DNA of 64,000 nt, from the NCBI GenBank assembly GCA_043821285.1, contig JBDRCZ010000109.1, positions 4,302-68,301 on the forward strand, in the 5' to 3' direction. Below the pieces are notes generated by a model, which saw nothing but the letters and a program-made list of their open reading frames with translations, was not told the DNA's origin and made no database searches. Source of the DNA: Candidatus Omnitrophota bacterium. GTDB lineage: Bacteria > Omnitrophota > Gorgyraeia > B26-G9 > JBDRCZ01. Shown here piece after piece: positions 4,756 through 25,332 of the stretch. Every line of letters starts with the position of its first letter. Position 1 is the first letter of the stretch. Both the position numbers and the translations under genes were made by a program.

Positions 4756-4868
4756 TCTGTGTTAATCCGTGGTTTTATCTTGAAAAATCTGGGTTCAAAT
4801 CTGATGCAACCGGCAAGATACCTATGCGTTAGCCACATAGATAGACAGTTATCAGGAATTTTTTTATT

Positions 4869-4897
4869 TTGACAATGCACGCAATTTTTGTTATATT
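4869..4897 (+). promoter_or_regulatory. Sigma70-like promoter TTGACA-17-TATATT
   Basis: ttgaca(4869-4874) atgcacgcaatttttgt tatatt(4892-4897) inside the 1-kb non-coding region. Confidence 0.45.
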
Positions 4898-5007
4898 ATA
4901 GATACACACCAAAATTCTAACTCCTTACATATTAAACTCATCTATTTCCTACGGTTTTGCCGCAGGGGGACATTTGGAGGGAAGGAATGATATTAATATC
5001 TGTATAG

Positions 5008-5075
5008 TAAATCGAAGACCCGCTGTATTGTGGCGGACGGGGATTAAATAACCTGCCAAAATTTATGGCGGGCCA
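5008..5075 (+). repeat. REP-like element
   Basis: aatcgaagacccgctgtattgtggcggacggggattaaat…atggcgggcc. Near-identical to the unit at 1561. Confidence 0.6.
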
Positions 5076-5212
5076 TTTAAAGTGTAAAACAAAAGTTTTT
5101 AAATGGATAAAAATTTCTGGTATTGCGAAACAACATCAACTTGGACTAATACCATATAGTCTTACTACAGTGATAGTCAAACTGAAGGAAATTTTTATTA
5201 GTAAAGACAAAA

Positions 5213-6355
5213 TTGAACAAGATAAAAGTATTTTATATCATAACGAAATTAGAACTTGGCGGGGCACAGCTTTACACCTTAGATTTAATTAAAACACTGG
5301 ATCGAGATAAATTTCAGCCGGTACTGCTAAGTTCTGACCATGGATTTTTAGTTGAAGAAGTAAAAAGGCAAGCTTTCTGCAAAACCTACTTTTTACCTGC
5401 CTTAAAAAGAGAGATTAATCCCCTATTAGATTTGCTTGCTTTTGTAAAGATAATTAAGTGTATACGAGATGAAAAACCGGATATTGTACATACCCATAGC
5501 TCAAAAGCCGGCATATTAGGCCGCTGGGCAGCAAAAATAGATGGGGTTAAGAAAATTATCCATACTATTCATGGGTTCCCTTTTTATGAGTATCAGAATA
5601 AGATTATTAAATATTTTTATATCTTTCTTGAAAAAATAACCGCGAAAATAACTACACAACTTATTACCGTTTCAAAAAGCGATATCCAAAAGGGACTAAA
5701 ATATAAAATTGGGACGTTAGAAAAATATGTGACAATACAGTGTATAATGCCAACGGAGCGGTTTAAAATAAGCCAAGATGAAATAGATAAAGTAAAAGCA
5801 GATTTCCGCTTAAAAAACGGGGTAAAAATTGTTGGCATGGTTGCTTGTTTTAAGCCGCAAAAGGCGCCGCTTGATTTTATTGAAATGTGCTGTTCTGTAT
5901 TAAAAAGGCTGCCAGATACCAAATTTATTTTAGTCGGCGACGGGATCTTACGAAAAAAGATTGAGCAGAGGATAAGACAATATAATTTAGAAGGTAAGAT
6001 TATACTTACCGGCTGGCGGAGAGATGTTCCAGAGATTTTATCGGTTATGGATGTATTTGTGCTTACGAGTAAATGGGAGGGGTTACCGGTTGCAATAATG
6101 GAAGCGATGTATATGGGTGTGCCGGTAGTCGCAAATTGCGTTGATGGGGTTCAGGAACTAGTACAGGATAAAGTTACCGGATATCTTGTTTCACCTGGGG
6201 ATATCGAAGGAATGGCAAATCGGGTAGTTGAGCTGCTGGCTAATGACAAGAAACGGATAACTTTGGCAGAGCAGGCAAGACATGCGGTTGATAACAAATA
6301 TAATATTACAACAATGGTAAATGATACCCAGCAGGTTTATGAATCATTGATTTAA
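5213..6355 (+). CDS. Glycosyltransferase family 4 (GT-B)
   Basis: TTG start, aggaa about 18 nt upstream. N-term KVFYIITKLELGGAQ is typical of GT4. C-terminal E-x7-E region (EGLPVAIMEAMYMGVPVV). Confidence 0.8.
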   Translation: MNKIKVFYIITKLELGGAQLYTLDLIKTLDRDKFQPVLLSSDHGFLVEEVKRQAFCKTYFLPALKREINPLLDLLAFVKIIKCIRDEKPDIVHTHSSKAGILGRWAAKIDGVKKIIHTIHGFPFYEYQNKIIKYFYIFLEKITAKITTQLITVSKSDIQKGLKYKIGTLEKYVTIQCIMPTERFKISQDEIDKVKADFRLKNGVKIVGMVACFKPQKAPLDFIEMCCSVLKRLPDTKFILVGDGILRKKIEQRIRQYNLEGKIILTGWRRDVPEILSVMDVFVLTSKWEGLPVAIMEAMYMGVPVVANCVDGVQELVQDKVTGYLVSPGDIEGMANRVVELLANDKKRITLAEQARHAVDNKYNITTMVNDTQQVYESLI

Positions 6356-6495: not shown

Positions 6496-7503
6496 ATGCA
6501 ACAATACATATTTTATACAGTTTTAGTTTCGATGATGCTGGCAATTATGCTTATGCCAATTTTTAAAAAATTTGCCTACAAGAAAAATCTGCTTAGCCGT
6601 ACAAACGCGATGGACAGGCGTAAGGTGCCTTATATTGGGGGTATTGTTTTTTACATTGTTTTTTGCATGGTTCTTATGATTATGCTTAATGTATCAAAGA
6701 TGCCTTTTGTGATTAAAAAATTGCAGGGGATAATTATTTCTTCAGCAATAATTGTTATTTTAGGACTATATGATGACTGGCGGGAGCTTAAGATGTTACC
6801 TAAATTTTTCGGCCAGCTTATTGCAGCAATGAGTCTGGCAATATTTGGCATCCGTACACATATAATCTTAATTGGGGATTTAGTAAATTATATTATAACG
6901 ATTATTTGGATTGTCGGGATTGTAAATGCGTTTAACTTTTTAGATATCAGAGATGGCTTATGTGCGGGTATTGCTCTAATTGCCACTACTTCATTTTTTA
7001 TAATTGCCCTTATCACTAAAAACAATTATATTGCCATGCAGTGCGCGGTATTAGCCGGAATTTTAATCGTATTTTTGAAATACAATTGTCCGCCGGCAAA
7101 GTTATTTATGGGGGATACCGGCAGCATGTTTTTAGGCTTTATCTTGGCCGCGATTGCCTTAGAAATAAGCTATGCCCCGGAAGGCCACAGCCTGCGTCTT
7201 TTATCTCCGATTATGGTAATGACGGTGCCTATTTTTGATATTATTTTTGTGACATTTATGCGGTTGAAAAATAAAAGGTCTGTTTTTAAAAAGAGTAACG
7301 ATCATTTTATTTTTTTACTGGAGGGGACAAAATTCAGCCGGCAGAATAGTATTATTTTTATGTTTAAATTAGGAATACTTGCTGCACTTGCGGCAATCAT
7401 TATAAATCTGACAGTAAATATTACCGGCAGTATCGTTTTTGTCATACTTTTAGTAACATTTATTGTCTCCGGAGCCAAAATTAGTTACTTAAAAAATGTT
7501 TAA
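6496..7503 (+). CDS. wecA: Polyprenyl-phosphate HexNAc-1-phosphate transferase (WecA/MraY family, glycosyltransferase family 4)
   Basis: Multi-TM protein. Motifs DDWRELK, NAFNFLDIRDGL and PAKLFMGDTGSMFLGF match WecA/MraY signatures. Confidence 0.8.
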   Translation: MQQYIFYTVLVSMMLAIMLMPIFKKFAYKKNLLSRTNAMDRRKVPYIGGIVFYIVFCMVLMIMLNVSKMPFVIKKLQGIIISSAIIVILGLYDDWRELKMLPKFFGQLIAAMSLAIFGIRTHIILIGDLVNYIITIIWIVGIVNAFNFLDIRDGLCAGIALIATTSFFIIALITKNNYIAMQCAVLAGILIVFLKYNCPPAKLFMGDTGSMFLGFILAAIALEISYAPEGHSLRLLSPIMVMTVPIFDIIFVTFMRLKNKRSVFKKSNDHFIFLLEGTKFSRQNSIIFMFKLGILAALAAIIINLTVNITGSIVFVILLVTFIVSGAKISYLKNV

Positions 7504-8326
7504 TATTGCAGATTTTATAAGAAAGATTCCCCCCAATTGGGAATTACTAATAAATTTAGCTTTAAAAAATATAAAGGTGCAGTATCGGCAGCCTTGGCTT
7601 GGGTTTTTGTGGGCATTTTTTGTGCCTTTGTTTATGATAATTATATTTAAGTTTATATTTTCAGTGATTCTGCGTATTCAAATAGCCGAGTATCCATTTT
7701 TCATTTATCTGATGACCGCAGTATTTCCCTGGAAATATTTTCAGGACTCCGTGGTGAGCGGAACCAACAGCATATTGAATAATAAAAACCTGGTAAAAGA
7801 GGCGGCATTCCCCCGTGAGCTTTTACCCATATCTGTAGTTATTGCCAATCTTATTAATTTTATCCCCAGTTTAGTAATAATGTTTTTATTTTTGCATATT
7901 TTTCGACTGGGTATCTCTGGCTGGTTTTTGTTACTGCCGGTTATTGTGTTATTGCATACATTTTTCATCATTGGGTTTGTGTTACTGACTTCTTGTCTTC
8001 AGGTAAAATTCCGCGATTTAAACTATATTGTGGAAGTATTAGTTTTTGCACTTTTTTATTTAACGCCGGTTTTTTATCCGCTAAATTTAGTCGAGCAGTA
8101 CCTAAATCCGGGGCTTTTTAAATTATATATAGCCAATCCGTTAGTCGGGATGCTTAATCTTTACCGGATAGCTTTTCTTCCGGGTTTTTACCGGACATTA
8201 CCAGAGCAAGTACAGATTTTTGATATTATCGTAATTCCTTTGATATGGACAGGCTTTATCTTTGCCACAGGGATTTTTGTTTTTAGAAAGCAAAAATATA
8301 CATTTAATGATTATATAGCTATTTAA
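7496..8326 (+). CDS. wzm: ABC-2 type polysaccharide exporter permease (Wzm-like)
   Basis: Six predicted TM helices. Overlaps the upstream gene by 8 nt. Immediately precedes the Wzt-like ATPase. Confidence 0.75.
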   Translation: MFNIADFIRKIPPNWELLINLALKNIKVQYRQPWLGFLWAFFVPLFMIIIFKFIFSVILRIQIAEYPFFIYLMTAVFPWKYFQDSVVSGTNSILNNKNLVKEAAFPRELLPISVVIANLINFIPSLVIMFLFLHIFRLGISGWFLLLPVIVLLHTFFIIGFVLLTSCLQVKFRDLNYIVEVLVFALFYLTPVFYPLNLVEQYLNPGLFKLYIANPLVGMLNLYRIAFLPGFYRTLPEQVQIFDIIVIPLIWTGFIFATGIFVFRKQKYTFNDYIAI

Positions 8327-8503: not shown

Positions 8504-10204
8504 ATGTGTATGCTTGTATTAGAAAATATCAGTAAAAGATTTGTCAAAGCAACGGATAAAGATTGTAAACCAGCGTATTTCTGGGCATTGAAGAATATGA
8601 GTTTTAGTATTGCACAAGGTGAAATTTTTGGTATCATCGGCAGAAATGGTGCAGGCAAGACAACCCTTTTAAACATTATTGCCGGGATTACTTCTCCGAC
8701 AGAAGGACAGATTAAACTGCAGGGTAAGGTTTCGAGTCTATTTAACTTAGGCACGGGTTTTCAGCATGAGTTAAGTGGCGCAGAGAATATTTATTTAAAC
8801 GGTGCAATTTTAGGCATGCGCCAGACTGAAATCCAGAATAAATACCGCAATATTGTTGAATTTTCCGAGCTGGATGAATTTATTAATATGCCTTTAGGAA
8901 ATTATTCGCAGGGCATGCAGCTCAGGCTTGGGTTTAGCATTGCCATACATTTAGATTTTGATTTATTAATTATCGATGAAGTGCTTACGGTTGGTGACGG
9001 GGCATTTCAGGATAAATGTTTTACAAAACTTACAGAATTTAGACAACAGGGTAAGACAATGATTATTACCACCCAGTCTTTAGGCCTCATTGAGAGGCTA
9101 TCAACCAAGGTGCTATTACTGGAGCAGGGTAGGAATTATGGATATGGCAGTCCGGAAAAGGTAATTGCCGCCTATAAAAAATTATTAAATGAGCACAGAA
9201 AATTATCTGTTTTTCAAAATAATGACATTGTAAAAAAAACAATGTGGTGGTCATTGGATAAAGAAGAGTGGGGGAGAAGATCCGGCACTAAAGAAGTAAT
9301 TATCAAAAAAGTAAAAATGCTAAATCGATGGGGAAAGGGTGTTCAAGAGATAAAACCCAATGATTTTTTAAAAATAAAGGTATGCTTTTCAGTTAAGCAG
9401 ATGATAAAAGAGCCGCATTTTGGCATTGCCGTATTCCGGGAAGATGGGGTTTATTGTTATGGTCCTAATACCATGTTTGATAGTCTTATGTTTGAGAGAT
9501 TAACTATGGGAGAAGGATGGTTTAGTCTTGAGTATAAACGATTTATTCTAATGCCGGGCAAGTATTATTTTTCTGTAATTATCTGGGACAAAAAAGAGGT
9601 ATTAGCCTATGATTGTTTTAAAGGATATTTTAAATTAGAAGTAATTGGGGAAAATAGGGATAATCAACTGCTGAGTCTTAAATCCAGGTTTCATGATCAG
9701 AAGTTTTGGTGGATAAAAAATAACCATTTAAGTAACGGTTTTTTAAATCACGCCGTGCTGAGTGATAAATGGCAAAAAGAATATAATTCTCAACAGGCCG
9801 AAATAAAAAGCGTCCGATTTTTAGATCGTCAGAATAATTTTAAAACAGAATTTTGTACCGAAGAAAAGATGCAGATAAAGATAGATTTTTTTATTCCCGA
9901 CATGGTTAAAAATAATACCCTGTGCTTATGGATAGGAATCTTCCGTGATGACGGTATTTTTTGCCATTCGCGCTATAAAAAGGTAAAACCAACAGATAAA
10001 TCATTCACTTTAATCTATCCGAAATTATTATTGTTACCCGGGGAATACCGGGTTTCTATTGTGATATATGATAAAAATAAAGATGATTTTTTAATTATCA
10101 ATCACGGCAGATATCCTTTTAGAGTATACTTTACACGCCCGGACCATGGCACAGTTTATTTAACACACCAATGGCGCTATAAATTGCCAGATAGTGTCAC
10201 ATAG
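8504..10204 (+). CDS. wzt: ABC transporter ATP-binding protein Wzt-like with tandem C-terminal carbohydrate-binding-like domains
   Basis: Walker A GRNGAGKTT. Signature YSQGMQLRLGF. Walker B LLIIDEV. C-terminal about 320 aa form two repeated beta-rich modules (…LMPGKYYFSVIIWDK… / …LLPGEYRVSIVIYDK…). Confidence 0.8.
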   Translation: MCMLVLENISKRFVKATDKDCKPAYFWALKNMSFSIAQGEIFGIIGRNGAGKTTLLNIIAGITSPTEGQIKLQGKVSSLFNLGTGFQHELSGAENIYLNGAILGMRQTEIQNKYRNIVEFSELDEFINMPLGNYSQGMQLRLGFSIAIHLDFDLLIIDEVLTVGDGAFQDKCFTKLTEFRQQGKTMIITTQSLGLIERLSTKVLLLEQGRNYGYGSPEKVIAAYKKLLNEHRKLSVFQNNDIVKKTMWWSLDKEEWGRRSGTKEVIIKKVKMLNRWGKGVQEIKPNDFLKIKVCFSVKQMIKEPHFGIAVFREDGVYCYGPNTMFDSLMFERLTMGEGWFSLEYKRFILMPGKYYFSVIIWDKKEVLAYDCFKGYFKLEVIGENRDNQLLSLKSRFHDQKFWWIKNNHLSNGFLNHAVLSDKWQKEYNSQQAEIKSVRFLDRQNNFKTEFCTEEKMQIKIDFFIPDMVKNNTLCLWIGIFRDDGIFCHSRYKKVKPTDKSFTLIYPKLLLLPGEYRVSIVIYDKNKDDFLIINHGRYPFRVYFTRPDHGTVYLTHQWRYKLPDSVT

Positions 10205-10335
10205 AAAATGAAAAACAGGAAAAGAATAAACCACAGAGGACATAGAGAACGAAGAATAAGATTATTCTCTAACTCTATTACACTCAAGTTACTCTGTGAC
10301 CTCTGTGGTTGAGTATTTGATAGAACCTAATTAGC
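10205..10335 (+). repeat. ccacagag-type inverted-repeat element
   Basis: aaaccacagagg … ctctgtgacctctgtggtt. Related units occur at 27160-27290 and 59780-59940. Confidence 0.5.
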
Positions 10336-11988
10336 ATGCGGAGAGAGGGAATGAAGCTTCCTATTGTTAGTATAATCGTAGTCAATTTCAACGGCAAAAA
10401 GTATCTAAGAGACTGCTTTACATCCTTAGCTAATCTAAATTATCCCAAAGATAAAATAGAGATAATTATGGTGGATAATGGTTCTACAGACGGTTCGTTA
10501 GAGTATACGGAGAAACATTTTTCAGAAGTAAAGATTATTAAAAATGACATTAACAATTACTGCCGGGCGAATAATTTAGGGATAAAACAAGCTAAAGGGG
10601 AATTTATTCTTTTACAAAATAATGATGTTGTAGCAGAAAAGGATGTGTTGAGAGAATTAATGTTAGTCATTAGCCAAGATAATAAGATCGGTGCAGTTAC
10701 CGGTAAGATCTTATTCCCTGACGGAAAGATACAGTGTGTGGGGCATTATATGATGCCAAATTATTACTGGGCAGACCGTGGATTTAGAGAGGATGACCAT
10801 GGGCAGTATAACGAGGCAGAGGAAATCGATAGTCTTTCGCATTGTTTTGCTTTATATAGAAAAGAGTGTTTGAACAATGTAGGCGAGTTGGATGAGTCTT
10901 TTAATATGTATCTGGAAGACATTGATTTGTCGATACGGCAAAAACAAGAGCAATGGAAAATATTTTATGTTCCAAAAGCAGTTGTTTATCATAAATTTCA
11001 TGGTTCAGTAGATGAAAAAACAGTTGACTTTTACTGTGAAAGAAACAGACTGCTGTTAGTGGCTAAACATTACCCAGAAAAATTACCCCAGACATTATTG
11101 GGACAAGGATATTTTACAGTTTTAAGAGATGCTCGAAAAAGATTTATTGAGATTTTACCGGAAATATTTAATAAGATAAGTATTCACCATGGTCCGGCAA
11201 TGGTTATTCGTTTACTTCCGGATATTTTTAAAAATATGCAGGAGATAATGAATTATGAAAAAGATTATTTGGTAAAGCATATAGATGTATTAAAAAGCTA
11301 TATTAGCAGCAAAGAAGCAGAAATTATCCGTTTAAACGAAAGGATTGAGCAGGAGGTTCGTTTCATTGCCAAAAGGGATAAGATTATTAAAGACAGAGAG
11401 GAAGAAATTATCCGTTTAAACGAAAGGATTGAACAGGAAATAAGTTATGTTATCGAAAGGGATAAAATTATTGAAAATAAGGAACATATAATTGCAGATT
11501 TAAATGAGCGGATTAAATATGGTCATAGTGTTATTTTAGAAAGAGATGATACGATAAAGGGAAAGGAAGAGAAAATTATCTGCTTAGAAGAAGAGATTAA
11601 ACGGAAATTAAATATTATTACTGAGAGAAATAAGGTTATCAGTGAGAAACATAGAGAGATTATGCGGTTAAATTCAGAAATTCAAGAGATGCTTAATTCA
11701 GAAACATTTCGTTTTTTAATCTGTCCTGCCTGGAAGATGTTAGATAGAATCAAATTATTATTCAAAAAATGCAAGCAATGCATAGGTTCTTTTATATTTT
11801 TTATAAAAAAGATTATAAAAAATATCAGGCATGTTTTTACAAATTTAGCAGAAAAAGCTTCACAATCGATTAAATATATAATAAAAGCAATATTAGGTAA
11901 TATTATCTTTGTTTTTATAATTATATTATTTTTTATATTTATTGCGGTTCCGTTAAGGTTGAAAAAAATATTTAGGGTAAATGTATGA
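10336..11988 (+). CDS. GT2 glycosyltransferase fused to a long C-terminal coiled-coil and a hydrophobic tail
   Basis: GT-A N-terminus (IVSIIVVNFNG…DNGSTDGS…, DxD-like EDID). Residues about 310-460 are heptad-rich repeats (EIIRLNERIEQE appears twice). Ends …NSETFRFLICPAW… plus a TM/amphipathic tail. Confidence 0.75.
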   Translation: MRREGMKLPIVSIIVVNFNGKKYLRDCFTSLANLNYPKDKIEIIMVDNGSTDGSLEYTEKHFSEVKIIKNDINNYCRANNLGIKQAKGEFILLQNNDVVAEKDVLRELMLVISQDNKIGAVTGKILFPDGKIQCVGHYMMPNYYWADRGFREDDHGQYNEAEEIDSLSHCFALYRKECLNNVGELDESFNMYLEDIDLSIRQKQEQWKIFYVPKAVVYHKFHGSVDEKTVDFYCERNRLLLVAKHYPEKLPQTLLGQGYFTVLRDARKRFIEILPEIFNKISIHHGPAMVIRLLPDIFKNMQEIMNYEKDYLVKHIDVLKSYISSKEAEIIRLNERIEQEVRFIAKRDKIIKDREEEIIRLNERIEQEISYVIERDKIIENKEHIIADLNERIKYGHSVILERDDTIKGKEEKIICLEEEIKRKLNIITERNKVISEKHREIMRLNSEIQEMLNSETFRFLICPAWKMLDRIKLLFKKCKQCIGSFIFFIKKIIKNIRHVFTNLAEKASQSIKYIIKAILGNIIFVFIIILFFIFIAVPLRLKKIFRVNV

Positions 11989-13166
11989 ATATTCTTTTTC
12001 TTTCCCGCGATTATCCCCCTGGACATGTTGGCGGGGTAGGGACATATGTTTATGAAATGTCACGCCTTTTAGCAAAAATAGGACACAAGGTGTTTGTGAT
12101 AACAGAATCTCAGGATGGACCGCTTGATTATATAGAACAGGGCGTACATATTTTTAGAGTTCCATATACTAAAAATAAGTTATTGAATTATGCCCGTCAG
12201 AAACTACCTGGTTTTATAGAAAGAGTGGAATATAGCTATATCGTATCGAAAAAAATACAAGAAGTTGTTTTAAAGCATAAAATTGACATTGTCGAAAGTT
12301 GTGAAGCACGCGCCGAAGGATTTTTATATTATCTTTTTAAAAGAAAACCGCCTTTGGTAATAAAACTTCATACCCCTGAAGGTATAGTATCTAAGTTGAA
12401 CCGTGATCCACAAACAAAGGACCGCCAATTGCTTGAAAAGTTAGAGGAATGGTGGATTTGCCGTGCGCATAGAGTAATCGGACTTAGTCAAGCAATTGCT
12501 AGTCTAACAAGACAGCATTACCAGATCAGACTTAAGAACCTGCCTATTGTATCAAATCCTCTTGATATCGAATATTTTAGACCCAGACAATGTTTAAATA
12601 ATCACAAGACAGTTTTGTATATAGGCCGGCTGGAGTTTCGTAAGGGTGTTCATGTGCTCATTCGTGCAATCCCCGGTATTTTAAAAGAAGTTCCTCAGGT
12701 AAAATTTATTTTTGTAGGTGATGACTGTGGAATGAAAGCCTATCTTAGAGATACCGTAGAGCGTTTCAATGTTAGCGATTCCGTAGAATTTCTTGACCAA
12801 ATGCCAAGAGATAAATTAATTGGTTATTATCAGCAAAGTAGTGTTTGTGTTGTCCCGTCTCTTTGGGAAAATCAGCCGTATGTAATCTTAGAGGCAATGG
12901 CTTGCGGAAAACCGGTTATTGCCAGTGATACCGGCGGAATCTCTGAAATTATCAAAGACAAAGTCAACGGGCTTTTAGTTGCCCCGGGGAGTGTAATAGA
13001 TTTAACAGAAATAATAATAAAAGTATTAGTTGATAGACAATTACAAGAAAAATTAGGTGATAATGCCAGAAAATTTATTGAAAATACATACTCCCCAATA
13101 ACAGTTGTTAAAAGCAGCTTAAAAATATATGAAAGATTTGTAAAGAATGTTTCCATTTTGCCCTAA
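11985..13166 (+). CDS. Glycosyltransferase family 4
   Basis: ATGA overlap. MNILFLSRDYPPGHVGGVGTY and EGFGLVILEAMACGKPVIAS-like motifs. Confidence 0.8.
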   Translation: MNILFLSRDYPPGHVGGVGTYVYEMSRLLAKIGHKVFVITESQDGPLDYIEQGVHIFRVPYTKNKLLNYARQKLPGFIERVEYSYIVSKKIQEVVLKHKIDIVESCEARAEGFLYYLFKRKPPLVIKLHTPEGIVSKLNRDPQTKDRQLLEKLEEWWICRAHRVIGLSQAIASLTRQHYQIRLKNLPIVSNPLDIEYFRPRQCLNNHKTVLYIGRLEFRKGVHVLIRAIPGILKEVPQVKFIFVGDDCGMKAYLRDTVERFNVSDSVEFLDQMPRDKLIGYYQQSSVCVVPSLWENQPYVILEAMACGKPVIASDTGGISEIIKDKVNGLLVAPGSVIDLTEIIIKVLVDRQLQEKLGDNARKFIENTYSPITVVKSSLKIYERFVKNVSILP

Positions 13167-14118
13167 ACCAAAGATTATGGTTTTTTTTACTACTTTTCGA
13201 TGTAACTTACGCTGCGCAATGTGCTATGCATGGATTAAACAGAAAAAAACTAAGGAACTTACAGTTGAGCAAATTCAAGAGCTATTTTGCGATAAACTTA
13301 TTAGGGATAATTTAGAGATTATAAACATTACTGGTGGAGAGCCGACATTAAGAGATGATCTTAGTGAGATTGCTAAAATAATTTTGAGCAATTGTAAACG
13401 GCTCAGACGTATTGACATATCTACCAATGGCGTTAATACCTCAGAGATAATTGATCAACTCGAACGCATCTTGGCGTTGGCTTTGCCAACAAATGTTAGG
13501 CTAACAGCAAATATTTCAATAGATGGTGTAGGAGAAACACATGAGCGGGTGAGAGGCGTTTCAGGTATATTTACTAAAGTCGAACAAACCGTAGAAGGGC
13601 TGAGAGAATTAATGCGATTATATCCATTTTTTTCTCTCGGTTTTAATATGACCATAAGCAGAATAAATTATCATGTAATAGAAGAGGTAAGAAAATATGC
13701 AAAACAAAAAGGCATTGGTGTTAACTTTACCTTGGCAGCAATTTCAGATATTGGGGTAGAGAGTTCTCGAGTAAAAGAGAAATTCATGATAGATCAAGAC
13801 AAAAACAATGCACTCATAGCATCTTTAAACGAATTATTAAAAACAAAAAATGGGGACTTACGTTATTTGAAATTGATTCTTACATGGCTTAAGACCGGAA
13901 GACGTAATGATTATTGTGCGTTTAGGCAAGGCAAGGCTTTTCTTTTAGAGCCTGATGGCGAAATGTATGCATGTGGTAATTTTAGGGAGTCCAGAATTGG
14001 TAATGTTACTCAGTCGCCATTGGAGAAAATATGGATGAGAGCCGGCAAAGCATGGAAAGCTATCTCCATTAAATGCAGCACTTGCGTTAGTAACTGTTAT
14101 ATAGATAAGGCAAAGTGA
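13147..14118 (+). CDS. Radical SAM enzyme with C-terminal SPASM/twitch-like Cys cluster
   Basis: CNLRCAMC (CX3CX2C). GGEPTL. C-terminal CAFRQG…YACGNF…CSTCVSNC. Start may be Met at 13177. Confidence 0.7.
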   Translation: MFPFCPKPKIMVFFTTFRCNLRCAMCYAWIKQKKTKELTVEQIQELFCDKLIRDNLEIINITGGEPTLRDDLSEIAKIILSNCKRLRRIDISTNGVNTSEIIDQLERILALALPTNVRLTANISIDGVGETHERVRGVSGIFTKVEQTVEGLRELMRLYPFFSLGFNMTISRINYHVIEEVRKYAKQKGIGVNFTLAAISDIGVESSRVKEKFMIDQDKNNALIASLNELLKTKNGDLRYLKLILTWLKTGRRNDYCAFRQGKAFLLEPDGEMYACGNFRESRIGNVTQSPLEKIWMRAGKAWKAISIKCSTCVSNCYIDKAK

Positions 14119-14363: not shown

Positions 14364-15767
14364 GTGAAAATCGCTCTTGTACAGTGTCCAGCTTGGACAA
14401 CCGAAAGTCCTACTTATGGGTTAGCATTATTAACCGCAGCATTAAAGAAAAGGGGGCATGAGGTACTATGCTTTGATTTTAATATTGAATTATATAGATT
14501 TTGTAAAGAACAACAGAACCAACATAGGAGTGTGATTAACGAGGAATCGTGGTCAATGGATTTTAGAGGAAGTGTCTGGTATGAGAAGGATAGTGTATTA
14601 AATTTTATAAATAGATTTGAAGTTTATATAGACGGACTTGTAGAGTTAGTTGTCCGTTCACCGGTACAAATTATCGGGTTTTCTGTGCAAAGTACTTCAA
14701 AATTTTTTAGTCTCGAATTTGCCCGCAGAATAAAGGAAAAAGATAAGAATAAAACTATTGTTTTTGGCGGACATTTGTGTTTTAGGAATTGTTATGGCAT
14801 AAATATGTTGAAAGATTTTCAATTTTTAGATTTTGTGTGCTTTGGAGAGGCAGAGGAATCCTTTCCCGATTTGGTAGGACGATTAGAGAAAAATGAGCAT
14901 ATTGAGTCTTACGCAGGATTTGGGCATTGTCTAAAAGATGGTACGATAATCGACGGTGGAGATGGGGAATTAATAGAAAATTTAGATGAAAAACCTTTTG
15001 CGGATTATTCTATCTTTTGTTTAGAAAAATATACAAAAAGTCTACTGCCTATTTCTACTAGCAGGGGTTGTATAAATAGATGCAGTTTTTGTAATGAAAG
15101 CCCTCATTGGGGGAGGTACAGGAGAAGGAGTGCACAAAATATTCTTGCCGAGATAATGTATCAAATAGAAAAGTATCCCCATATAGAAATGTTTTGGTTT
15201 AATGATTCTTTAATTAATGGGGATATTAAAATGCTAAATGAATTATGTGATTTATTAATTTCAAATAAAATTAGAATTAATTGGGGTGGGCAAGGGATAA
15301 TTTGTAACGAAATGAAAAGAGAGTTCTTGCAAAAAATGAAGTTAGCGGGTTGCAGTGTAATAAGTTATGGTGTTGAAAGTGGTAGTACTAAGCTATTGAG
15401 GTTAATGCAAAAAAAATATACGGCAGAGCTATCCGAAGAGGTAATACGCAATACTTTCAAAACAGGCATAAGTGTGATTTTTAATATAATTGTAGGCTTT
15501 CCAAGCGAAACGGAAAATGAATTTAAGAAGACCAGAGATTTTATCAGGCATTGCAGAAAATATGCGAGCCATATAGAACTGGTGTCATTACTTCTATTAA
15601 AAGATTCATATTTATATAACAACCTTGAAAAATTTAACATTGCTCCTATGGAATCTAACGACTCCGATTGGCAGTTAAAATGGAAGACAAATGATAACCT
15701 AAATACTTATAGCATACGTAAGCAACGTTTGGAGGAGTTAAAGAAAATAATGGAAGAAGCATTTTAG
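14364..15767 (+). CDS. B12-binding (class B) radical SAM enzyme
   Basis: GTG start with taggagg RBS. N-terminal B12-binding-like Rossmann segment (KIALVQCPAW…). Radical SAM core RGCINRCSFC. Confidence 0.75.
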   Translation: MKIALVQCPAWTTESPTYGLALLTAALKKRGHEVLCFDFNIELYRFCKEQQNQHRSVINEESWSMDFRGSVWYEKDSVLNFINRFEVYIDGLVELVVRSPVQIIGFSVQSTSKFFSLEFARRIKEKDKNKTIVFGGHLCFRNCYGINMLKDFQFLDFVCFGEAEESFPDLVGRLEKNEHIESYAGFGHCLKDGTIIDGGDGELIENLDEKPFADYSIFCLEKYTKSLLPISTSRGCINRCSFCNESPHWGRYRRRSAQNILAEIMYQIEKYPHIEMFWFNDSLINGDIKMLNELCDLLISNKIRINWGGQGIICNEMKREFLQKMKLAGCSVISYGVESGSTKLLRLMQKKYTAELSEEVIRNTFKTGISVIFNIIVGFPSETENEFKKTRDFIRHCRKYASHIELVSLLLLKDSYLYNNLEKFNIAPMESNDSDWQLKWKTNDNLNTYSIRKQRLEELKKIMEEAF

Positions 15768-17500: not shown

Positions 17501-18724
17501 TTGAATATATGCCTTATTTCCCGTGAATATCCGGGCGAGACCGGCTGGGGGGGGATAGGTACTTATACTTATCATCTGGCGCATGGATTATCAAAACTGG
17601 GACATAAGGTCGTGGTTATTACTCAGGGGCTTGAGGCAGATAAAGAATACATGGATAAGAGTGTCTGGATATATAGAACTAAACATAAGATTTTGTTTGA
17701 ACATAAAGAGTCCTTGAAAGATTTTTTTCAGCGTTTGGAATACAGTAAGACTGTATATGCAAAGATAAGCGAACTAATAACAAAATGGCGTTTTGATATT
17801 ATTGAAGGGCCGAACTTGTCCGGAGAAGCTTTTATCTACAGTTTATTTAAAAAAGCCCCTTTAGTAACACGGCTGCATACGCATTTTTCTGAGGTGATTT
17901 CTTTTTTAGGCTGGGAAATAACCCAAGACCTGCGGCTGAGCTGCTGGATAGAAGATGCCACGATTTTAAGAAGCGATCTGGTAACTTGTTCAACGCGGCA
18001 ACATGCTGGGATTATCTTTAGCAACTTGGTATCCTGTCCGGAAAATGTAGAAATAATCCCCCTGGGTGTTCCCTTACCAACATTAGACCGGCAAAATAAA
18101 GTTAATCAGGGTAAATGGAAAGTCTTATATGTGGGCAGGCTTGAAAAAAGAAAGGGTATACAAGTATTAATTAAAGCAATACCTGAAATATTACAGCAGG
18201 TTCCTGACACGGAATTTAATATTATTGGCCGGGATTCTTATGTTAATGGGGAGAGTGTTTCTTTTACTGGTCGCGCAGAGGATTCGTTTCAGCGTAAACT
18301 ATTGAAAGACATCCCGCGGCAATATTTAAAAAAAATTAAATTTATAGGATATGCAGAGGATAAGCAATTAGAAGAGTACTACCAGAGTTGTGACGTATTT
18401 GTAGCGCCGTCTTTGTATGAGTCATTCGGATTTATTTATATTGAGGCAATGTCCTATGCTAAGCCGGTTGTCGGATGCAGTGTTGGCGGGGTGCCGGAGG
18501 TTATAAAAGATGGAGAAACAGGAATATTGGTTGCGCCCGAGGACCATTATCAACTGACACAGGCAATTATCCGGTTATTAAAAAATAAAGAGTTAAGAGT
18601 GAGAATGGGAATTAATGCCAGAAAACATGTGGAAGCAAATTTTACCCGCGAACAGATGGTACAGAAAACCCTGGATACGTATAGAAAAGTTATTAACGTA
18701 AAGAATAATAAAAGAACCAGATGA
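17501..18724 (+). CDS. Glycosyltransferase family 4, tandem paralog A
   Basis: N-term NICLISREYPGETGWGGIGTY. RBS aaaaggag sits upstream of TTG 17501 (the ORF track begins at 17477). About 60% identical to the CDS at 19154. Confidence 0.8.
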   Translation: MNICLISREYPGETGWGGIGTYTYHLAHGLSKLGHKVVVITQGLEADKEYMDKSVWIYRTKHKILFEHKESLKDFFQRLEYSKTVYAKISELITKWRFDIIEGPNLSGEAFIYSLFKKAPLVTRLHTHFSEVISFLGWEITQDLRLSCWIEDATILRSDLVTCSTRQHAGIIFSNLVSCPENVEIIPLGVPLPTLDRQNKVNQGKWKVLYVGRLEKRKGIQVLIKAIPEILQQVPDTEFNIIGRDSYVNGESVSFTGRAEDSFQRKLLKDIPRQYLKKIKFIGYAEDKQLEEYYQSCDVFVAPSLYESFGFIYIEAMSYAKPVVGCSVGGVPEVIKDGETGILVAPEDHYQLTQAIIRLLKNKELRVRMGINARKHVEANFTREQMVQKTLDTYRKVINVKNNKRTR

Positions 18725-19140
18725 TATTAACTAAACCCAGAGGTGCTGATTTGAACAATAAAAATGATTCTATAAAATATCAGGATTTTGATAAACTTCT
18801 TGAGCTTTTCATAAAAAAGATTATTGAGTTAGAAAACATGATTAAAGACAGAGAAGAACACATCAATAATCTCAAAGCAATGTTGCAAGAAAGGGATAAA
18901 TCTATCGGAGCTGCTGCACAGGAGCTAAAAGACCAAAAAGGGCATATTAATAAGTTGGAAGAAAATATAAGAATTAAAGAGAAAAATATTGAATCACTGC
19001 TTCAGGAAATCAAGGGTATTTATAATTCAGAAACTTACCGGTTTATTGTGCGGCCGGTTATTTTGCCATGTTTATCAGTGGTAAAGAGAATAGCTCATAG
19101 AATAAAAAAATTGTTTGACTTATTAAAATTCTTTAAGTGA
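18721..19140 (+). CDS. Small coiled-coil protein sharing its C-terminal motif with the GT2-coiled-coil fusion
   Basis: ATGA overlap. Heptad-rich. C-terminus NSETYRFIVRPV… parallels NSETFRFLICPAW… at the end of the CDS at 10336. Confidence 0.6.
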   Translation: MILTKPRGADLNNKNDSIKYQDFDKLLELFIKKIIELENMIKDREEHINNLKAMLQERDKSIGAAAQELKDQKGHINKLEENIRIKEKNIESLLQEIKGIYNSETYRFIVRPVILPCLSVVKRIAHRIKKLFDLLKFFK

Positions 19141-21957: not shown

Positions 21958-23063
21958 AAAAAATTAATGATAATATTGCAAAAATTCTAAAACACATTAT
22001 TTTTTCCTTATTTTGCTTAGCAGTAATTTTTTTATTTTTAGAATTGGGACTGCGTTTATGCGAAAAATTTAAAAGGAATGTGCGAGAATATTGTTTAGAA
22101 TCGGAAAAAGCAGGTTTAGATATTGAAGATAATAAACTTTTTTGGAAAATGAAACCAAATATTGATATCGTCTGGCAAGGTGTTAATATTAAAACAAACA
22201 GTTTAGGATTAAGAGATTACGAAATTTCGCCGATTAAAGAACAAAAAGTTTTTAGGATGCTTTCTCTTGGTGAATCAACTACGTTTGGCGCGAAAGTTGA
22301 ATTTGAAAATATTTATTCAGAAGTATTAGAAAATAAATTAAATAAGGATAATTCTGATTATATTTTTGAAGTAATCAATGCTGGGGTATCTGCCTATACA
22401 TCATTTCAGAGCCTTATTTATCTAAAAGAACAAGGCTTAAAGCTAAATCCAGATATGATTTTAATTTATCACCAGGCCAATGATAATTTACCAGCCACTA
22501 TTCGAAAAAATAAAAATGCTTTTGACTTTTCGCTTAGCGACAGGCAGTTGTATAACTTAAGAAACAATTTTTCTGGAATTTTATATCAGTTAAATAAAAG
22601 CTTTGTCTATGGAGCTATGAAAAATTATTTACTAAAAATCAGGATGTGTTTTTTAAAAAATAGTGCAACTACATTGCGCAAAAGTTTACCTGATTTAACC
22701 ATAGTTGACATAAAGAGAAAATGCCGGGTGCCATTAGATGATAGAAAAGAGATTTTTAAAGAATTTTTAGAGATTTCAGAAAAAAATAAGATTACACTTG
22801 TTTTAATCCATCCTATATATAAAAAAAGTTTAGGGCAAAAATGTTTTTTGACAGAATTTGCTGAACAAAACAATGTACCGCTCATCGAAACCTTTGAGGC
22901 ATTTAAACAAAGCGGCTATTCCCCTGAGGAATTGTTTTATGATAGTATGCACCCCACAGCAACAGGGCATAAGATTATAGCAGATTGCATATTTAAATAT
23001 ATAAAAGCTTATACCCATCAGCTTTTACATGAAAAAGTGGCAGAAAAAGATGATAAAAATTAA
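21954..23063 (+). CDS. SGNH hydrolase-like protein (second copy)
   Basis: N-terminal TM. LSLGESTTFG. DSMHPTATGH. Confidence 0.6.
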   Translation: MKKINDNIAKILKHIIFSLFCLAVIFLFLELGLRLCEKFKRNVREYCLESEKAGLDIEDNKLFWKMKPNIDIVWQGVNIKTNSLGLRDYEISPIKEQKVFRMLSLGESTTFGAKVEFENIYSEVLENKLNKDNSDYIFEVINAGVSAYTSFQSLIYLKEQGLKLNPDMILIYHQANDNLPATIRKNKNAFDFSLSDRQLYNLRNNFSGILYQLNKSFVYGAMKNYLLKIRMCFLKNSATTLRKSLPDLTIVDIKRKCRVPLDDRKEIFKEFLEISEKNKITLVLIHPIYKKSLGQKCFLTEFAEQNNVPLIETFEAFKQSGYSPEELFYDSMHPTATGHKIIADCIFKYIKAYTHQLLHEKVAEKDDKN

Positions 23064-25332
23064 CAAAACTATTACTGGAATAAAACTGATATTAATATTA
23101 GTTTTCACATCGTTTTTTATTTATTCAACCTTATCCCATTATAGCAACGCGGACTCGCCGCTAAGAATTTGGCTGTTAACATTATTAATATTTGTGCTAT
23201 TTATTATCAGGAAATTGTTTTTGCATAAAAACAATTTGAAAAATCTGTTAAGCCCCACGATGGGTTTCTTTATTATGCTTAGTATCACCCAGACGATAAC
23301 AAATATTTATAAACTTGGTGGATCGTATGTGTTAATCTCTGAGATTATTCATTATGCGCTGGTTTTTTTTATTCTCATCTGCAATTTTAGGAAAATAAAA
23401 TATATTGATACAGGATTAATTCTGTTTATTGTCTATTCTTTCAGAATTTTTGATACCTCCCTTTTTGTGAATGAATTTGTTTTCCTGCATGCCTTGTCCT
23501 TAATATTAGGATTGCTTTGGATTGAAGATATTTATCTAAAGAAACAGCGGCTACCCAAAGTCAACCTAATATTCACCCCGGGCATTATTTTGGTGGTAAT
23601 TGCAATTTTTTCAACAATAACCGCAGTCTGTCCATATTACAGTTTAGCGCAGATGATGATTATGATAAATTTTGCCTTTATTGCTTTTTTAATTGCTAAT
23701 CATGTAAAGGGCATGGATCAAATTAAACTTTTAATTTTTACCCTTTTTTGCCTGGGGTTTTTTTTGTTCGTGTTGCTTATCAAGGATGAGCTTCTCTGGC
23801 GTGGTATATATTCACTTATGGGGCGAATTTGGATAGAATTAGGAAATCCTAACGGGTACAGAATTCATCCTAATTCTCTTGCCGGATATTTTGCCGCGCT
23901 GCTGTGTTTACTTATTGGCGATAGGCACTTTTACCGTGGGAAGATTTTTAAAGCAGCTAAGATATTAGTTATAATTATTATGGCAGTTATTTTATTATTG
24001 ACTTTTTCACGGCTGGGGATTTTTAGTTTTATATTATCAGTGAGTATTTTATTCTGGTTGAGATATAAAGAAACAATAAAAATTATTAAAAACAGAGCGC
24101 TTTATATGTTTTTAATTATAGGTTTAATTACAGGGGTAATATTTTTAAGTCCGATAAAACAAAACCTTATTAGGAGAATTTATGATTTTGGGTCTAACAG
24201 CCAAACTCTTTATAGTTGTCGAAATAGTCTAAAAGCAATAAAAGATAATCCCTTACTTGGATTTGGATTAGATAATTACTATATTCTTTCCAAGTACGCA
24301 AAAGAACAGATACTTAGTCCTAATGGTCAAGGCATGTTGTCAACACGGAATGTGATATGGTCTCCATCACACAGCACATATTTAGGGATTGCCTTTGGAT
24401 TAGGGATAATGGGACTTTTGGTTTTTATATGGTTGTTAGTGAGTATTGTTATATATTTTATCCGTTTAAACAAATTTATTTCAGATGATAAATCTGAAAA
24501 GGCATTATTACAGGCTATTTTTGTGGCGTTTATATCGGTACTTATTCACGGAGTTTTAGCGATGACATTTCACTTAACTATTTTACCGGCATTTTTTTGG
24601 GTGTTTATCGGGCTTATGATCGCAATTGGGAATGTTGTCAATTTTAATAAAAGTTGTTATGAGTTTAAGCCATGGGGATTTTATATTGTATTGTTAGTAG
24701 TGCTTTTATTTAGCATAGGGGTTGTAATTAATCCGGTTATTGCAGAAGCACGGTATATTTCAGCGCAGAAGAGTTTTAGCTTGGGAGAATTACAAAAAGC
24801 GATGAGAGCGATTAATCAGGCAAAAATATTTATGCCGATTGACCCAAAAATTTATGAATTAGAAGCAGAAATTAAAAATGCAAAAGGTTTAGTTGACCAA
24901 GCCATAGCAGATTATAAACGGGCTTTAACTTTTAAAAAAGATTTTGCCTTTTATCATACCAGAATAGGGCAGTTATATTGGCAAAAAAAGAAATATCCTT
25001 ATGTGCTTTTAGAATTTGAAAAGGCAATTGAATTGGATAAATATGGGGTATGTTATCAAGAACATTATTCTGACTTAGGCAGCTTTTATAATGAGTTAGG
25101 AGATAAGACACAAGCTATTGCACAATTTAAAAAAGCTATTCTAATAGACCCCGAAGTAGTAGGCAATACTGACTGGGCAGGGGCAGATTATTTAGATGAT
25201 ATTATAAAACAAACATATCAGGATTATTTAATGCTTAAAGATAAAGAACCATTAGCCGCGGAGCAGATATTATATAGTCTACGGCGCATTGAACAAGGCA
25301 AGGTTAAGAAAACAAAAAATAAACAGGATTGA
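23029..25332 (+). CDS. Wzy_C-family membrane protein (O-antigen ligase, polymerase or PglL-like O-oligosaccharyltransferase) with C-terminal TPR repeats
   Basis: About 12 TM helices. Periplasmic-loop motifs LTFSRLG… and WSPSHSTYLG are typical of Wzy_C. C-terminal about 200 aa are TPR-like. Confidence 0.65.
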   Translation: MKKWQKKMIKINKTITGIKLILILVFTSFFIYSTLSHYSNADSPLRIWLLTLLIFVLFIIRKLFLHKNNLKNLLSPTMGFFIMLSITQTITNIYKLGGSYVLISEIIHYALVFFILICNFRKIKYIDTGLILFIVYSFRIFDTSLFVNEFVFLHALSLILGLLWIEDIYLKKQRLPKVNLIFTPGIILVVIAIFSTITAVCPYYSLAQMMIMINFAFIAFLIANHVKGMDQIKLLIFTLFCLGFFLFVLLIKDELLWRGIYSLMGRIWIELGNPNGYRIHPNSLAGYFAALLCLLIGDRHFYRGKIFKAAKILVIIIMAVILLLTFSRLGIFSFILSVSILFWLRYKETIKIIKNRALYMFLIIGLITGVIFLSPIKQNLIRRIYDFGSNSQTLYSCRNSLKAIKDNPLLGFGLDNYYILSKYAKEQILSPNGQGMLSTRNVIWSPSHSTYLGIAFGLGIMGLLVFIWLLVSIVIYFIRLNKFISDDKSEKALLQAIFVAFISVLIHGVLAMTFHLTILPAFFWVFIGLMIAIGNVVNFNKSCYEFKPWGFYIVLLVVLLFSIGVVINPVIAEARYISAQKSFSLGELQKAMRAINQAKIFMPIDPKIYELEAEIKNAKGLVDQAIADYKRALTFKKDFAFYHTRIGQLYWQKKKYPYVLLEFEKAIELDKYGVCYQEHYSDLGSFYNELGDKTQAIAQFKKAILIDPEVVGNTDWAGADYLDDIIKQTYQDYLMLKDKEPLAAEQILYSLRRIEQGKVKKTKNKQD

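Follow-up and report, generated by a model that had tools for sequence, protein, structure and literature searches.

Gene order at the export locus

The stretch of DNA analyzed here (the window) is 64,000 nucleotides from a Candidatus Omnitrophota MAG (GCA_043821285.1, contig JBDRCZ010000109.1, forward-strand positions 4,302 to 68,301). The genes and features that concern us all lie on the plus strand:

5213..6355, +, GT4 glycosyltransferase (Pfam Glycos_transf_1 and Glyco_transf_4), first gene of the conserved core
6496..7503, +, WecA-like polyprenyl-phosphate sugar-phosphate transferase, the initiating enzyme (Pfam Glycos_transf_4, PF00953, E 7e-34)
7496..8326, +, Wzm, ABC-2 permease (Pfam ABC2_membrane, E 6e-12)
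8504-10204, +, wzt open reading frame, 566 aa
10231..10308, +, hairpin in the wzt/GT2-coil intergenic spacer, with perfect 9-nt arms, unique in the window
10336-11988, +, GT2-coil open reading frame, 550 aa, the next gene after wzt
11985..13166, +, GT4 glycosyltransferase, candidate polymerase module (Pfam), overlapping the GT2-coil gene stop by 4 nt
13147..14118, +, radical SAM/SPASM enzyme (Pfam Radical_SAM and SPASM), overlapping the GT4 gene by 20 nt
14364..15767, +, B12-binding radical SAM enzyme resembling class B methyltransferases (Pfam B12-binding and Radical_SAM)
18721..19140, +, stand-alone coiled-coil open reading frame, 139 aa, heptad z 6.2, ending in junction motif IYNSETYRFIVRP
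23029..25332, +, Wzy_C (O-antigen-ligase-like) membrane protein with C-terminal TPR repeats (Pfam Wzy_C, E 3e-17, and TPR)

The order GT4, WecA, Wzm, Wzt with two carbohydrate-binding modules (CBMs), GT2 is shared by at least 80 species-level genomes. Among related loci, the GT4 gene sits upstream of WecA in 42 (median identity 43%), WecA keeps its position in 45, and Wzm, whose gene lies directly before wzt in the window, precedes wzt in 75. In 67 of 82, the next gene after wzt is a GT2 gene. The match of Wzm to the NCBIfam galactan Wzm/RfbD model is sub-threshold (57 bits, cut-off 380). In the spacer behind wzt, the hairpin is stable, with an MFE of -33.4 kcal/mol (z -4.4).

Farther downstream, the GT4 and radical SAM genes are variable, with median identities of 26-29%. 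The radical SAM genes (26-27%) were detected in only 19-21 of the 82 loci, a set in which short flanks are common. For the B12-binding enzyme, which is syntenic in loci L001 and L003, the best NCBIfam match was the RiPP radical SAM C-methyltransferase model, at 174 bits and thus below the cut-off of 282. The Wzy_C-TPR protein is a candidate ligase for the exported glycan, and the cassette in L001-L003 is likewise closed by a Wzy_C gene.

An earlier sequence-only reading of this region had placed the wzt and GT2-coil reading frames exactly. It did not include the radical SAM link, the junction-motif family or the synteny across the phylum.

Wzt and its two Wzt_C modules

We divided the Wzt protein into four parts, scanning the two CBMs separately against Wzt_C (PF14524, gathering cut-off 30.4 bits):

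8504..9223, +, nucleotide-binding domain (NBD), aa 1-240 (Pfam ABC_tran at aa 29-160, E 4e-21)
9266..9673, +, CBM1, aa 255-390, canonical Wzt_C module (72.3 bits)
9674..9763, +, variable inter-CBM linker, aa 391-420 (13% mean identity in 120 homologues)
9764..10204, +, CBM2, aa 421-566 and the stop codon, diverged second Wzt_C module (40.3 bits)

The best PDB relatives of the NBD are Wzt and TagH/TarH, and its match to Aquifex aeolicus Wzt (8dku/7k2t) has an E of 7e-64 (phmmer). Both modules exceed the Wzt_C cut-off, and they resemble each other at 25% identity (BLASTP, E 7e-16) and as family profiles (hhalign, probability 99.8%, E 9e-29). The motifs ..FR(E/D)DG(V/I)(Y/F)C.., ..(M/L)PG(K/E)Y.. 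and ..S(V/I)(I/V)I(W/Y)DK.. are common to the two. AlphaFold2 (AF2) modeled aa 236-566 as two beta-sandwiches (pLDDT 89.6, pTM 0.87), with low pLDDT in the linker at model residues 170-176, and the best PDB matches of this model by Foldseek were Wzt cap-binding domains (CBDs), namely 8dky (TM 0.85, E 1e-9), 5hno and 2r5o. The earlier description of two similar, beta-rich modules with shared motifs was therefore borne out, and the extension is predicted to have a CBM-like fold. Together, Wzt and Wzm are an ABC exporter in which Wzt carries two true Wzt_C domains.

The closest solved relative of the NBD and CBM1 is the A. aeolicus WzmWzt transporter (PDB 8dku, 7k2t; CBD 8dky, 6o14), whose CBD matches CBM1 with a profile E of 2e-9 and the Foldseek TM of 0.85 given above. 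As in the window, NBD and CBD are fused. However, each A. aeolicus Wzt chain carries a single CBD, which dimerizes by strand swapping with the CBD of a second chain (PMC9445017), whereas the window Wzt has two CBDs per chain with a variable linker between them. The invariant residues of CBM1 (HFGxAxFR, SxxIWDKxE..AxDY) fall on the cap-binding strands of 8dky (PMC9445017) and match the elements with which A. aeolicus Wzt holds its 3-O-methyl cap, namely L300, T346, A348, H350, W362 and the trap loop (PMC9445017).

In contrast to the suggestion of the sequence-only reading that tandem CBMs would be an unusual variant, they were present in all of the best 120 Wzt homologues and in at least 80 species-level genomes, which makes them normal for the phylum. 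Other multi-CBM formats of Wzt exist, and some relatives encode the CBD pair as a separate polypeptide. Median identity across loci was 53.4% for the NBD, 48.9% for CBM1, and 34.7% for the linker and CBM2.

This unequal conservation is one of several points that would fit a degenerate CBM2, without ligand binding of its own and serving as a structural partner or spacer, in a system that works like a single-CBD Wzt. The second module scores 40 bits against 72 for CBM1, and only CBM1 aligns by sequence with the A. aeolicus CBD and single-CBD Wzt proteins; solved CBDs and CBM2 could not be aligned in this way. Canonical CBDs also require a strand-exchanging partner domain (PMC9445017), and the pTM of the model suggests that the two modules may pack against each other. 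Still, CBM2 has retained a family-wide, pocket-lining signature (LWxGI[FY]RxDGIYC, SxGxWD) and an invariant C-terminal strand (DHGT.YL.H.W), which argues for selection beyond fold stability. We therefore regard a degenerate CBM2 as rather unlikely, although it is the strongest of the alternatives considered here. The window CBM2 has Tyr at the position of a near-invariant family Trp.

A GT2 domain on a predicted coiled-coil stalk

The protein encoded after wzt consists of the following parts:

10363..11190, +, GT2 catalytic domain of GT-A fold, aa 10-285 (Pfam Glycos_transf_2, PF00535, E 3e-26, 92.7 bits)
11194..11691, +, continuous alpha-helix/coiled coil, aa 287-452, about 25 nm (a single unbroken helix in AF2)
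11695..11733, +, coil-terminal junction motif NSETFRFLICPAW (consensus in the family [IF][YF]xSx[TI][YF][RQK][FY]hxxPxW)
11887..11955, +, hydrophobic membrane anchor, aa 518-540 (hydropathy scan; AF2 C-terminal helix aa 510-546)

This matches the combination of GT2 domain, heptad-rich coil and hydrophobic tail that had been noticed from the letters. The protein was modeled at an overall pLDDT of 83, with the GT2 domain above 90. Foldseek matched that domain to GT-A enzymes (E 1e-17), among them ppGalNAc-T, GlfT2 and RmlT, and 60 sequences all share its acidic residues D97, D186, E187 and E194. Its median identity was 49.5% across 74 loci. WbdD and WbbB, the known coiled-coil ruler proteins, were absent from the PDB sequence matches and the Pfam/NCBIfam matches of the GT2-coil protein, so any resemblance to them is architectural only.

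A single heptad register runs through all 166 residues of the helix. Its a/d positions are 67% hydrophobic, vs. 29% elsewhere (z 5.5, 0 of 2000 shuffles), and a control stretch from the GT2 domain gave a heptad z of -0.45. The AF2 run was on a monomer, with pLDDT down to 50-70 over the final third of the helix; coiled-coil formation and oligomeric state are read from the heptads only. The region is thus predicted to be a coiled coil, in a continuous helix rather than a disordered segment. The coil unit reported earlier as duplicated, EIIRLNERIEQE, does occur twice, as part of about 4.5 tandem 28-residue repeats at aa 329-456 (39% identity at offset 28). An 84-bp tandem repeat in the DNA (1.8 copies, 82% identical) lies at 11319-11472.

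At the coil end, the junction motif was found in 51 of the best 120 homologues, many of the others being truncated, and in 15 locus proteins. The anchor, at the opposite end of the coil from the GT2 domain, is followed by a basic tail (RLKKIFRVNV), and a tail of the form ..PLKLRKIF is conserved in homologues. The distance from GT2 to the junction motif ranged from about 20 to 430 residues, and internal coil repeats in homologues are multiples of seven residues. Near-identical relatives are separated by whole-heptad indels in the stalk: 7+21 residues between P0124 and P0128, and 35 between P0175 and P0181, all inside the coil. This pattern would fit a stalk that sets chain length.

Other relatives join these parts to further enzymes. 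The giant homologues in L049, L050 and L038 have the order GT2-coil-hydrophobic helix-GT2-GT4-rSAM-SPASM, collinear with the overlapping genes GT2-coil, GT4 and rSAM-SPASM of the window, and radical SAM/SPASM domains are fused C-terminally to GT2-coil(-GT2-GT4) proteins in L001, L031, L038, L049 and L050. In the giant fusions, the hydrophobic helix immediately follows the coil. A membrane-seeking helix is thus found at the coil base in split and fused forms alike, which places the N-terminal GT2 domain distally.

Like the GT2-coil protein, the stand-alone coiled coil at 18721-19140 carries the end motif IYNSETYRF..P, and the two match with an E of 2e-9 when composition is not corrected for, in agreement with the earlier observation of a common C-terminal motif. 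Its tail after the motif is amphipathic and basic, its start overlaps the stop of the upstream GT4 gene (ATGA), and it is flanked by two GT4 paralogues 63% identical to each other. A search among 5.8 billion proteins returned only its self-match, so conservation offers no argument for its role.

A cap-and-ruler reading and its alternatives

In characterized capped systems, the marker is a coiled-coil protein with a distal terminator together with a CBM on Wzt (PMC11231755), and CBDs bind the cap (PMC9445017). We think it likely, judging from architecture and comparison, that this region holds the core genes for export and termination in a glycan assembly line of the ABC-transporter-dependent, cap-and-ruler type, a cassette conserved across Candidatus Omnitrophota. 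Under this proposal, the WecA-like enzyme and the upstream GT4 would start a lipid-linked glycan, the downstream GT4 enzymes would lengthen it at the membrane, and the radical SAM enzymes may alter it. The anchor would pin the coil base at the membrane, leaving the GT2 domain up to about 25 nm away. Only chains reaching that domain would be given a terminal sugar, which would halt extension. The conserved CBM1 would then bind the conserved cap in its canonical pocket and so license export. CBM2, a diverged duplicate with its pocket signature retained, might read a second, lineage-specific feature; alternatively, it might stand in for the second Wzt chain of canonical CBD dimers, as the source of partner domain and exchanged strand. 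The exported glycan would finally be joined to an acceptor by the Wzy_C-TPR protein. To our knowledge, no glycan structure, cap or enzyme activity has been described for any member of the Omnitrophota.

That the distal GT2 domain is the chain terminator that adds the cap is our proposal. The matched conservation of GT2 and CBM1, both close to the NBD in median identity while CBM2 and the downstream genes vary, is the pattern expected if a conserved cap, the enzyme that adds it and its reader stand beside a variable polymer. However, the conserved domain could equally make a conserved adaptor or backbone linkage. A GT2-family terminator is also without demonstrated precedent: of the terminators named in PMC11231755, those that are glycosyltransferases (the N-terminal GT of WbbB and the founding member of GT137) transfer Kdo, and the remaining ones add methyl or methylphosphate groups. 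The sequence-only reading had likewise favored terminal-cap recognition with a coiled-coil length device. The architecture, the pairing of GT2 with wzt in 67 of 82 loci, the heptad variation and the WbbB-like fusions support that idea, while the terminator role and the existence of a cap are what we infer from architecture and comparison.

The same fusions make the coil protein a hub of several enzymes, which would also suit a scaffold: GT2 would be an ordinary chain-building or adaptor transferase, the coil would oligomerize and hold the GT4s and radical SAM enzymes, and chain length would depend on how much transporter there is relative to synthesis complex, as happens in CBM-less systems. 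GT2 enzymes mostly serve in polymerization or as adaptors, generic GT-A transferases, with the polymerase GlfT2 among them, are the best matches in structure, and the cap chemistry has no known example here. However, 166 residues are more than a pure oligomerization module needs, nor does oligomerization call for a variation of 20-430 residues with the heptad phase kept. The anchor at the far coil end would be a bad placement for a GT2 working on short, membrane-bound acceptors, and a CBM on Wzt accompanies capping in every characterized case (PMC11231755). We thus consider a scaffold unlikely.

Still less likely, in our estimation, is that a radical SAM or B12 radical SAM enzyme makes the cap, for instance through methylation of the last sugar, with GT2 adding only the penultimate or acceptor sugar or playing no part in termination and the tandem CBMs reading the modification: methyl is the commonest known cap, A. 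aeolicus included (PMC9445017), the B12 enzyme resembles class B methyltransferases, and both enzymes recur in synteny at several loci and, at others, as fusions to the coil protein, but the fused radical SAM domains are membrane-proximal, beside other GTs and not at the distal tip, the enzymes fall below every curated family cut-off, and their 26-27% median identity, vs. 49% for CBM1, fits a lineage-specific modification better than a conserved cap.

Compared with known systems, the proposed cap-and-ruler arrangement has parallels in several formats. WbdD of E. coli O9a and K. pneumoniae O3, a methyltransferase-kinase terminator on a coiled-coil ruler, has the same topology as the window protein, with an N-terminal catalytic domain, an extended coiled coil and a C-terminal membrane-associating region, and in both the format is split, the WbdD system having its polymerase on a separate protein (PMC11231755). 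However, the two are without sequence relationship, the distal enzyme is a GT2 glycosyltransferase rather than a kinase/methyltransferase, the window protein has a 23-residue hydrophobic helix as its anchor where WbdD has an amphipathic helix, and the junction motif is specific to the GT2-coil family. In WbbB of K. pneumoniae O12 and Raoultella terrigena, a terminating GT, a coiled coil and two polymerase GTs form one chain. It shares the N-terminal, distal glycosyltransferase terminator proposed here for GT2, and the giant Omnitrophota homologues (GT2-coil-GT2-GT4-...) match its single-polypeptide format. By contrast, termination by WbbB falls to a beta-Kdo transferase of a GT family other than GT2, the Omnitrophota fusions have extra radical SAM/SPASM domains and a hydrophobic helix after the coil, and the window protein is without polymerase modules. 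K. pneumoniae O4 ORF7, a GT137 alpha-Kdo terminator with a C-terminal coiled coil, and O7 ORF6, grouped alongside it, are stand-alone terminator-plus-coil proteins whose polymerase activities lie on other polypeptides, in a flexible distribution of modules (PMC11231755). Their catalytic folds differ from the window GT2, a tandem CBM is not reported for O4/O7 Wzt, and O4 and O7 are proteobacterial LPS systems with known glycan structures.

Taken with these comparisons, our analysis suggests that Candidatus Omnitrophota may carry, phylum-wide, a variant of the cap-and-ruler system that would be distinguished by tandem CBMs on Wzt and a GT2 domain on a stalk.

The glycan locus and its surroundings

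The window derives from a metagenome-assembled genome of Candidatus Omnitrophota, and its Wzt ORF matches at 100% identity an NCBI protein carrying that label. The glycan locus spans 28 kb (5213-33728), with all genes of interest on the + strand, and its G+C content of 0.30-0.36 lies below that of the downstream housekeeping genes.

Genes of the glycan locus (position, strand, product)
5213-6355, +, GT4
6496-7503, +, WecA-like initiating transferase
7496-8326, +, Wzm
8504-10204, +, Wzt
10336-11988, +, GT2-coiled-coil protein
11985-13166, +, GT4
13147-14118, +, radical SAM/SPASM
14364-15767, +, B12 radical SAM
15796-17418, +, PMT_2-type GT-C
17477-18724, +, GT4
18721-19140, +, 139-aa coiled-coil ORF
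19154-20392, +, GT4
20515-23063, +, two GDSL proteins
23029-25332, +, Wzy_C-TPR
25289-31390, +, three further radical-SAM genes
31499-33728, +, two GT4 genes

The five radical-SAM genes (13147-14118, 14364-15767, 25289-26866, 27290-29269, and 29744-31390) comprise two SPASM-type and three B12-binding members, none of which reached any NCBIfam cut-off for a curated family. Regulator genes for a histidine kinase, a sigma-54 activator, and a PocR-GAF protein lie at 234-4140, separated from the locus by 1.07 kb (4141-5212) without convincing ORFs or Rfam matches. The best sigma-70-like site in this gap (4869-4897) agreed at 11 of 12 positions and includes a TG. Because a sigma-54 activator is encoded at 1583-3106, we also searched for a sigma-54 promoter upstream of the glycan locus, where the frequency of matches did not exceed chance and none was convincing. 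Rfam models, run over the 1-kb non-coding gap and over the window as a whole, matched just one FMN riboswitch and one tRNA gene, neither of them in the gap. The riboswitch (51852-52001, 84.9 bits) precedes ribBA (52119-53327), and the tRNA-Pro(CGG) gene is at 58059-58136. Among the related loci, L001 has a riboflavin operon directly upstream of wzm. An ORF of 484 aa at 50070-51524 matched no Pfam family at E <= 1e-5.

The 131-nt spacer between the genes for Wzt and the GT2-coiled-coil protein holds a hairpin (10231-10308) with perfect 9-nt arms (CCACAGAGG / CCTCTGTGG) and a minimum free energy of -33.4 kcal/mol (z -4.4), found once in the window. No T-run follows it, which rules out a classic terminator; the hairpin could act in RNA processing or in RNA stability.

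The two carbohydrate-binding modules of Wzt

The sequence-only reading had proposed that Wzt carries two similar, carbohydrate-binding-like modules at its C-terminus, and this was borne out by an ABC domain followed by two Wzt_C modules. Scanned singly, these scored 72.3 and 40.3 bits, both above the Pfam gathering score of 30.4. The two modules of the window protein (CBM1 and CBM2) are 25% identical (E 7e-16), and their family profiles match at 99.8% probability. The anticipated beta-sandwich fold also appeared: the AlphaFold2 model of aa 236-566 (41 sequences, pLDDT 89.6, pTM 0.87) contains two beta-sandwiches with a short low-confidence linker between them, and its best PDB matches were the cap-binding domains of the A. 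aeolicus, K. pneumoniae O12 / R. terrigena, and E. coli O9a Wzt proteins. A single-sequence phmmer search with the Wzt extension gave chance matches only.

In an exhaustive profile search, ordinary single-CBD Wzt proteins aligned to module 1 only, which makes module 1 the canonical domain and module 2 an added, diverged one. Invariant residues of CBM1 align with A. aeolicus L300, T346, A348, H350, the trap loop, and W362, which hold the 3-O-methyl cap (PMC9445017); CBM1 of the window family has in this sense retained the cap-pocket residues of the A. aeolicus CBD. No sequence link from CBM2 to solved structures emerged, as the family profile matched the A. aeolicus CBD via module 1 only. CBM2 has an invariant DHGT.YL strand, and at the position of the IWDK Trp of CBM1 it has a Tyr.

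When each species was represented by a single genome, a scan recovered the tandem CBM from at least 80 of them, and almost all of these carry the label Omnitrophota. The best 120 Wzt homologues were all 554-602 aa long and covered both modules. In the exhaustive profile search, ~40-50 of the 72 matches at E <= 1e-30 extended over both modules. Multi-CBM Wzt formats of other kinds occur elsewhere. The CBM pair forms its own polypeptide in three genomes, which agrees with the report that CBDs can function in trans (PMC9445017). In these split cases (L008:2110-3809, L020:945-2854, and L047:9131-10960), an NBD protein of 250-288 aa accompanies a tandem-CBM protein of 316-320 aa, and many stand-alone tandem-CBM proteins of ~320 aa were also found in the representative search. 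Two other loci (L063:8717-10633 and L034:3551-4604) have a second gene after wzt, whose product has Wzt_C-like modules at the C-terminus and ends in ..HSWNWKLP.

The GT2-coiled-coil protein and its relatives

The product of the gene after wzt had been described as a GT2 domain followed by a coiled coil with an internal duplicated unit, and both features held. AlphaFold2 predicts a confident GT-A domain (aa 10-285) and an unbroken helix (aa 287-452), followed by a stretch of low confidence and, at the end, another helix (aa 510-546). A single heptad register runs across all 166 helix residues (z 5.5 vs shuffles; GT2-domain control, z -0.45). The duplication proved more extensive, as the helix holds ~4.5 tandem 28-residue units, the first two of which are still 82% identical in DNA.

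Homologues range from ~300 to 2224 residues, and the heptad region begins at ~aa 290-320 in nearly all full-length ones. A conserved junction motif, [IF][YF]xSx[TI][YF][RQK][FY]hxxPxW, closes the coil at a distance of ~20 to 430 residues from the GT2 domain (median 148), and internal repeats of the coils are multiples of seven residues. The sole differences within two near-identical pairs of homologues are 7+21 residues (P0124/P0128) and 35 residues (P0175/P0181), all within the coil; coil length therefore shifts by whole heptads between close relatives. Beyond the motif, homologues carry variable modules without a Pfam match; many also have a hydrophobic helix that ends in ..PLKLRKIF. Two of the variable modules recur: one of ~170 aa, beginning ..LIIKPxCV.., resembles by eye the N-terminal half of GT9 heptosyltransferases, and one of ~150 aa, beginning ..LCFAYFSA..NxYxLKxTN.., is probably beta-rich.

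The largest homologues, of 1,500-2,224 aa, are giant fusions (L049:8216-14887, L050:10944-17432, and L038:10947-17177; also in L045, L021, L013, and L025) with the order GT2-coil-hydrophobic helix-GT2-GT4-radical SAM-SPASM, which is also the order of the overlapping genes in the window. They recall WbbB, in which terminating GT, coil, and polymerase GTs share one chain (PMC11231755). Because their single hydrophobic helix sits between cytoplasmic-type domains, it is more suggestive of an anchor that is re-entrant or lies in the plane of the membrane than of one that spans it.

The stand-alone coiled-coil ORF (18721-19140) was likewise confirmed as heptad-rich (z 6.2) and as ending in the same motif as the GT2-coiled-coil protein. 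A search of 5.8 billion proteins returned only its self match, and comparison with the 3' end of the GT2-coiled-coil gene gave no meaningful DNA similarity; recent duplication as its origin is therefore unsupported. Its start and the stop codon of the preceding GT4 gene share bases (ATGA), and the two flanking GT4 paralogues (17477-18724 and 19154-20392) are 63% identical. The 139-aa product may join the coil bundle or anchor the flanking GT4 enzymes.

A proposed capping and length-control machine

The gene order GT4-WecA-Wzm-Wzt-GT2 is near-universal across the 82 loci compared, and a GT2 gene lies directly 3' of wzt in 67 of them. As a measure of conservation, we used the median identity of locus proteins to those of the window. 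This was highest for the NBD (53%), the GT2 domain (49.5%), and CBM1 (49%), followed by the upstream GT4 (43%), Wzm (42%), WecA (37.5%), the linker plus CBM2 (35%), and the downstream GT4 and radical-SAM genes (26-29%).

Glycans that are capped, length-controlled, and ABC-dependent are marked by a coiled-coil protein with a distal terminator in combination with a CBM-bearing Wzt (PMC11231755). The GT2-coiled-coil protein matches this geometry, with an anchor at one end and the GT2 domain up to ~25 nm away at the other, and the GT2 domain and CBM1 are similarly conserved while the rest varies, as would fit a conserved cap with its own transferase and reader. Both observations lead us to favour the GT2 domain as terminator, the coil as ruler, and CBM1 as cap reader, while CBM2 would act either as another reader or as a dimer partner built into the chain. 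Alternatively, the coil may serve as a scaffold only, or the cap may be made by a radical-SAM enzyme. On the latter, the radical-SAM domains of the fusions lie on the membrane-proximal side of the coil, which points to polymer modification rather than capping. A broader reading, which we consider rather unlikely, is a phylum-specific Omnitrophota glycan line in which enzymes of the radical-SAM/SPASM and B12 radical-SAM types are a physical part of the polymerase-terminator machine and two CBMs read two determinants. In some species these enzymes and the machine share single 2,000-residue proteins. Radical chemistry would, for example, C-methylate or epimerise the growing lipid-linked polysaccharide, and the Wzt CBMs would check both a conserved cap added by the GT2 domain and a modified residue particular to the lineage before export. 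If true, this would be a two-key export checkpoint, unknown in characterised systems.

This kind of system is already known, and its function in the window is one that we infer. The tandem CBM, the GT2 distal enzyme, and the junction motif appear to be undescribed, as do the heptad-stepped natural length series, the radical-SAM fusions, and the phylum-wide conservation. Literature searches, whose coverage did not extend to the 2019 census of Mann, Kimber and Whitfield (Glycobiology 29:822), returned nothing on these features: in full-text searches, neither tandem Wzt CBMs nor Wzt in Omnitrophota turned up as the subject of any paper, and no precedent for a GT2-family terminator was found in the same literature. 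That census reportedly treats CBM organisation and terminator chemistries.

Experimental proof of cap-and-ruler length control comes, in the literature surveyed, only from a few proteobacterial O antigens, and from A. aeolicus for the transporter itself. Omnitrophota are very small bacteria, possibly host-dependent, and the family described here would carry the principle into this uncultivated phylum, adding another putative terminator fold (GT2), a doubled module for the proposed cap reading, an apparently undescribed junction motif, and fused radical-SAM enzymes. Coils of 20 to 430 residues, which differ by whole heptads between near-identical proteins, form a natural series on which the ruler hypothesis can readily be tested. 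The tandem CBM, in turn, lets one ask whether an intramolecular pair can replace the canonical CBD dimer, a question of relevance to the A. aeolicus transporter, whose asymmetry is unexplained.
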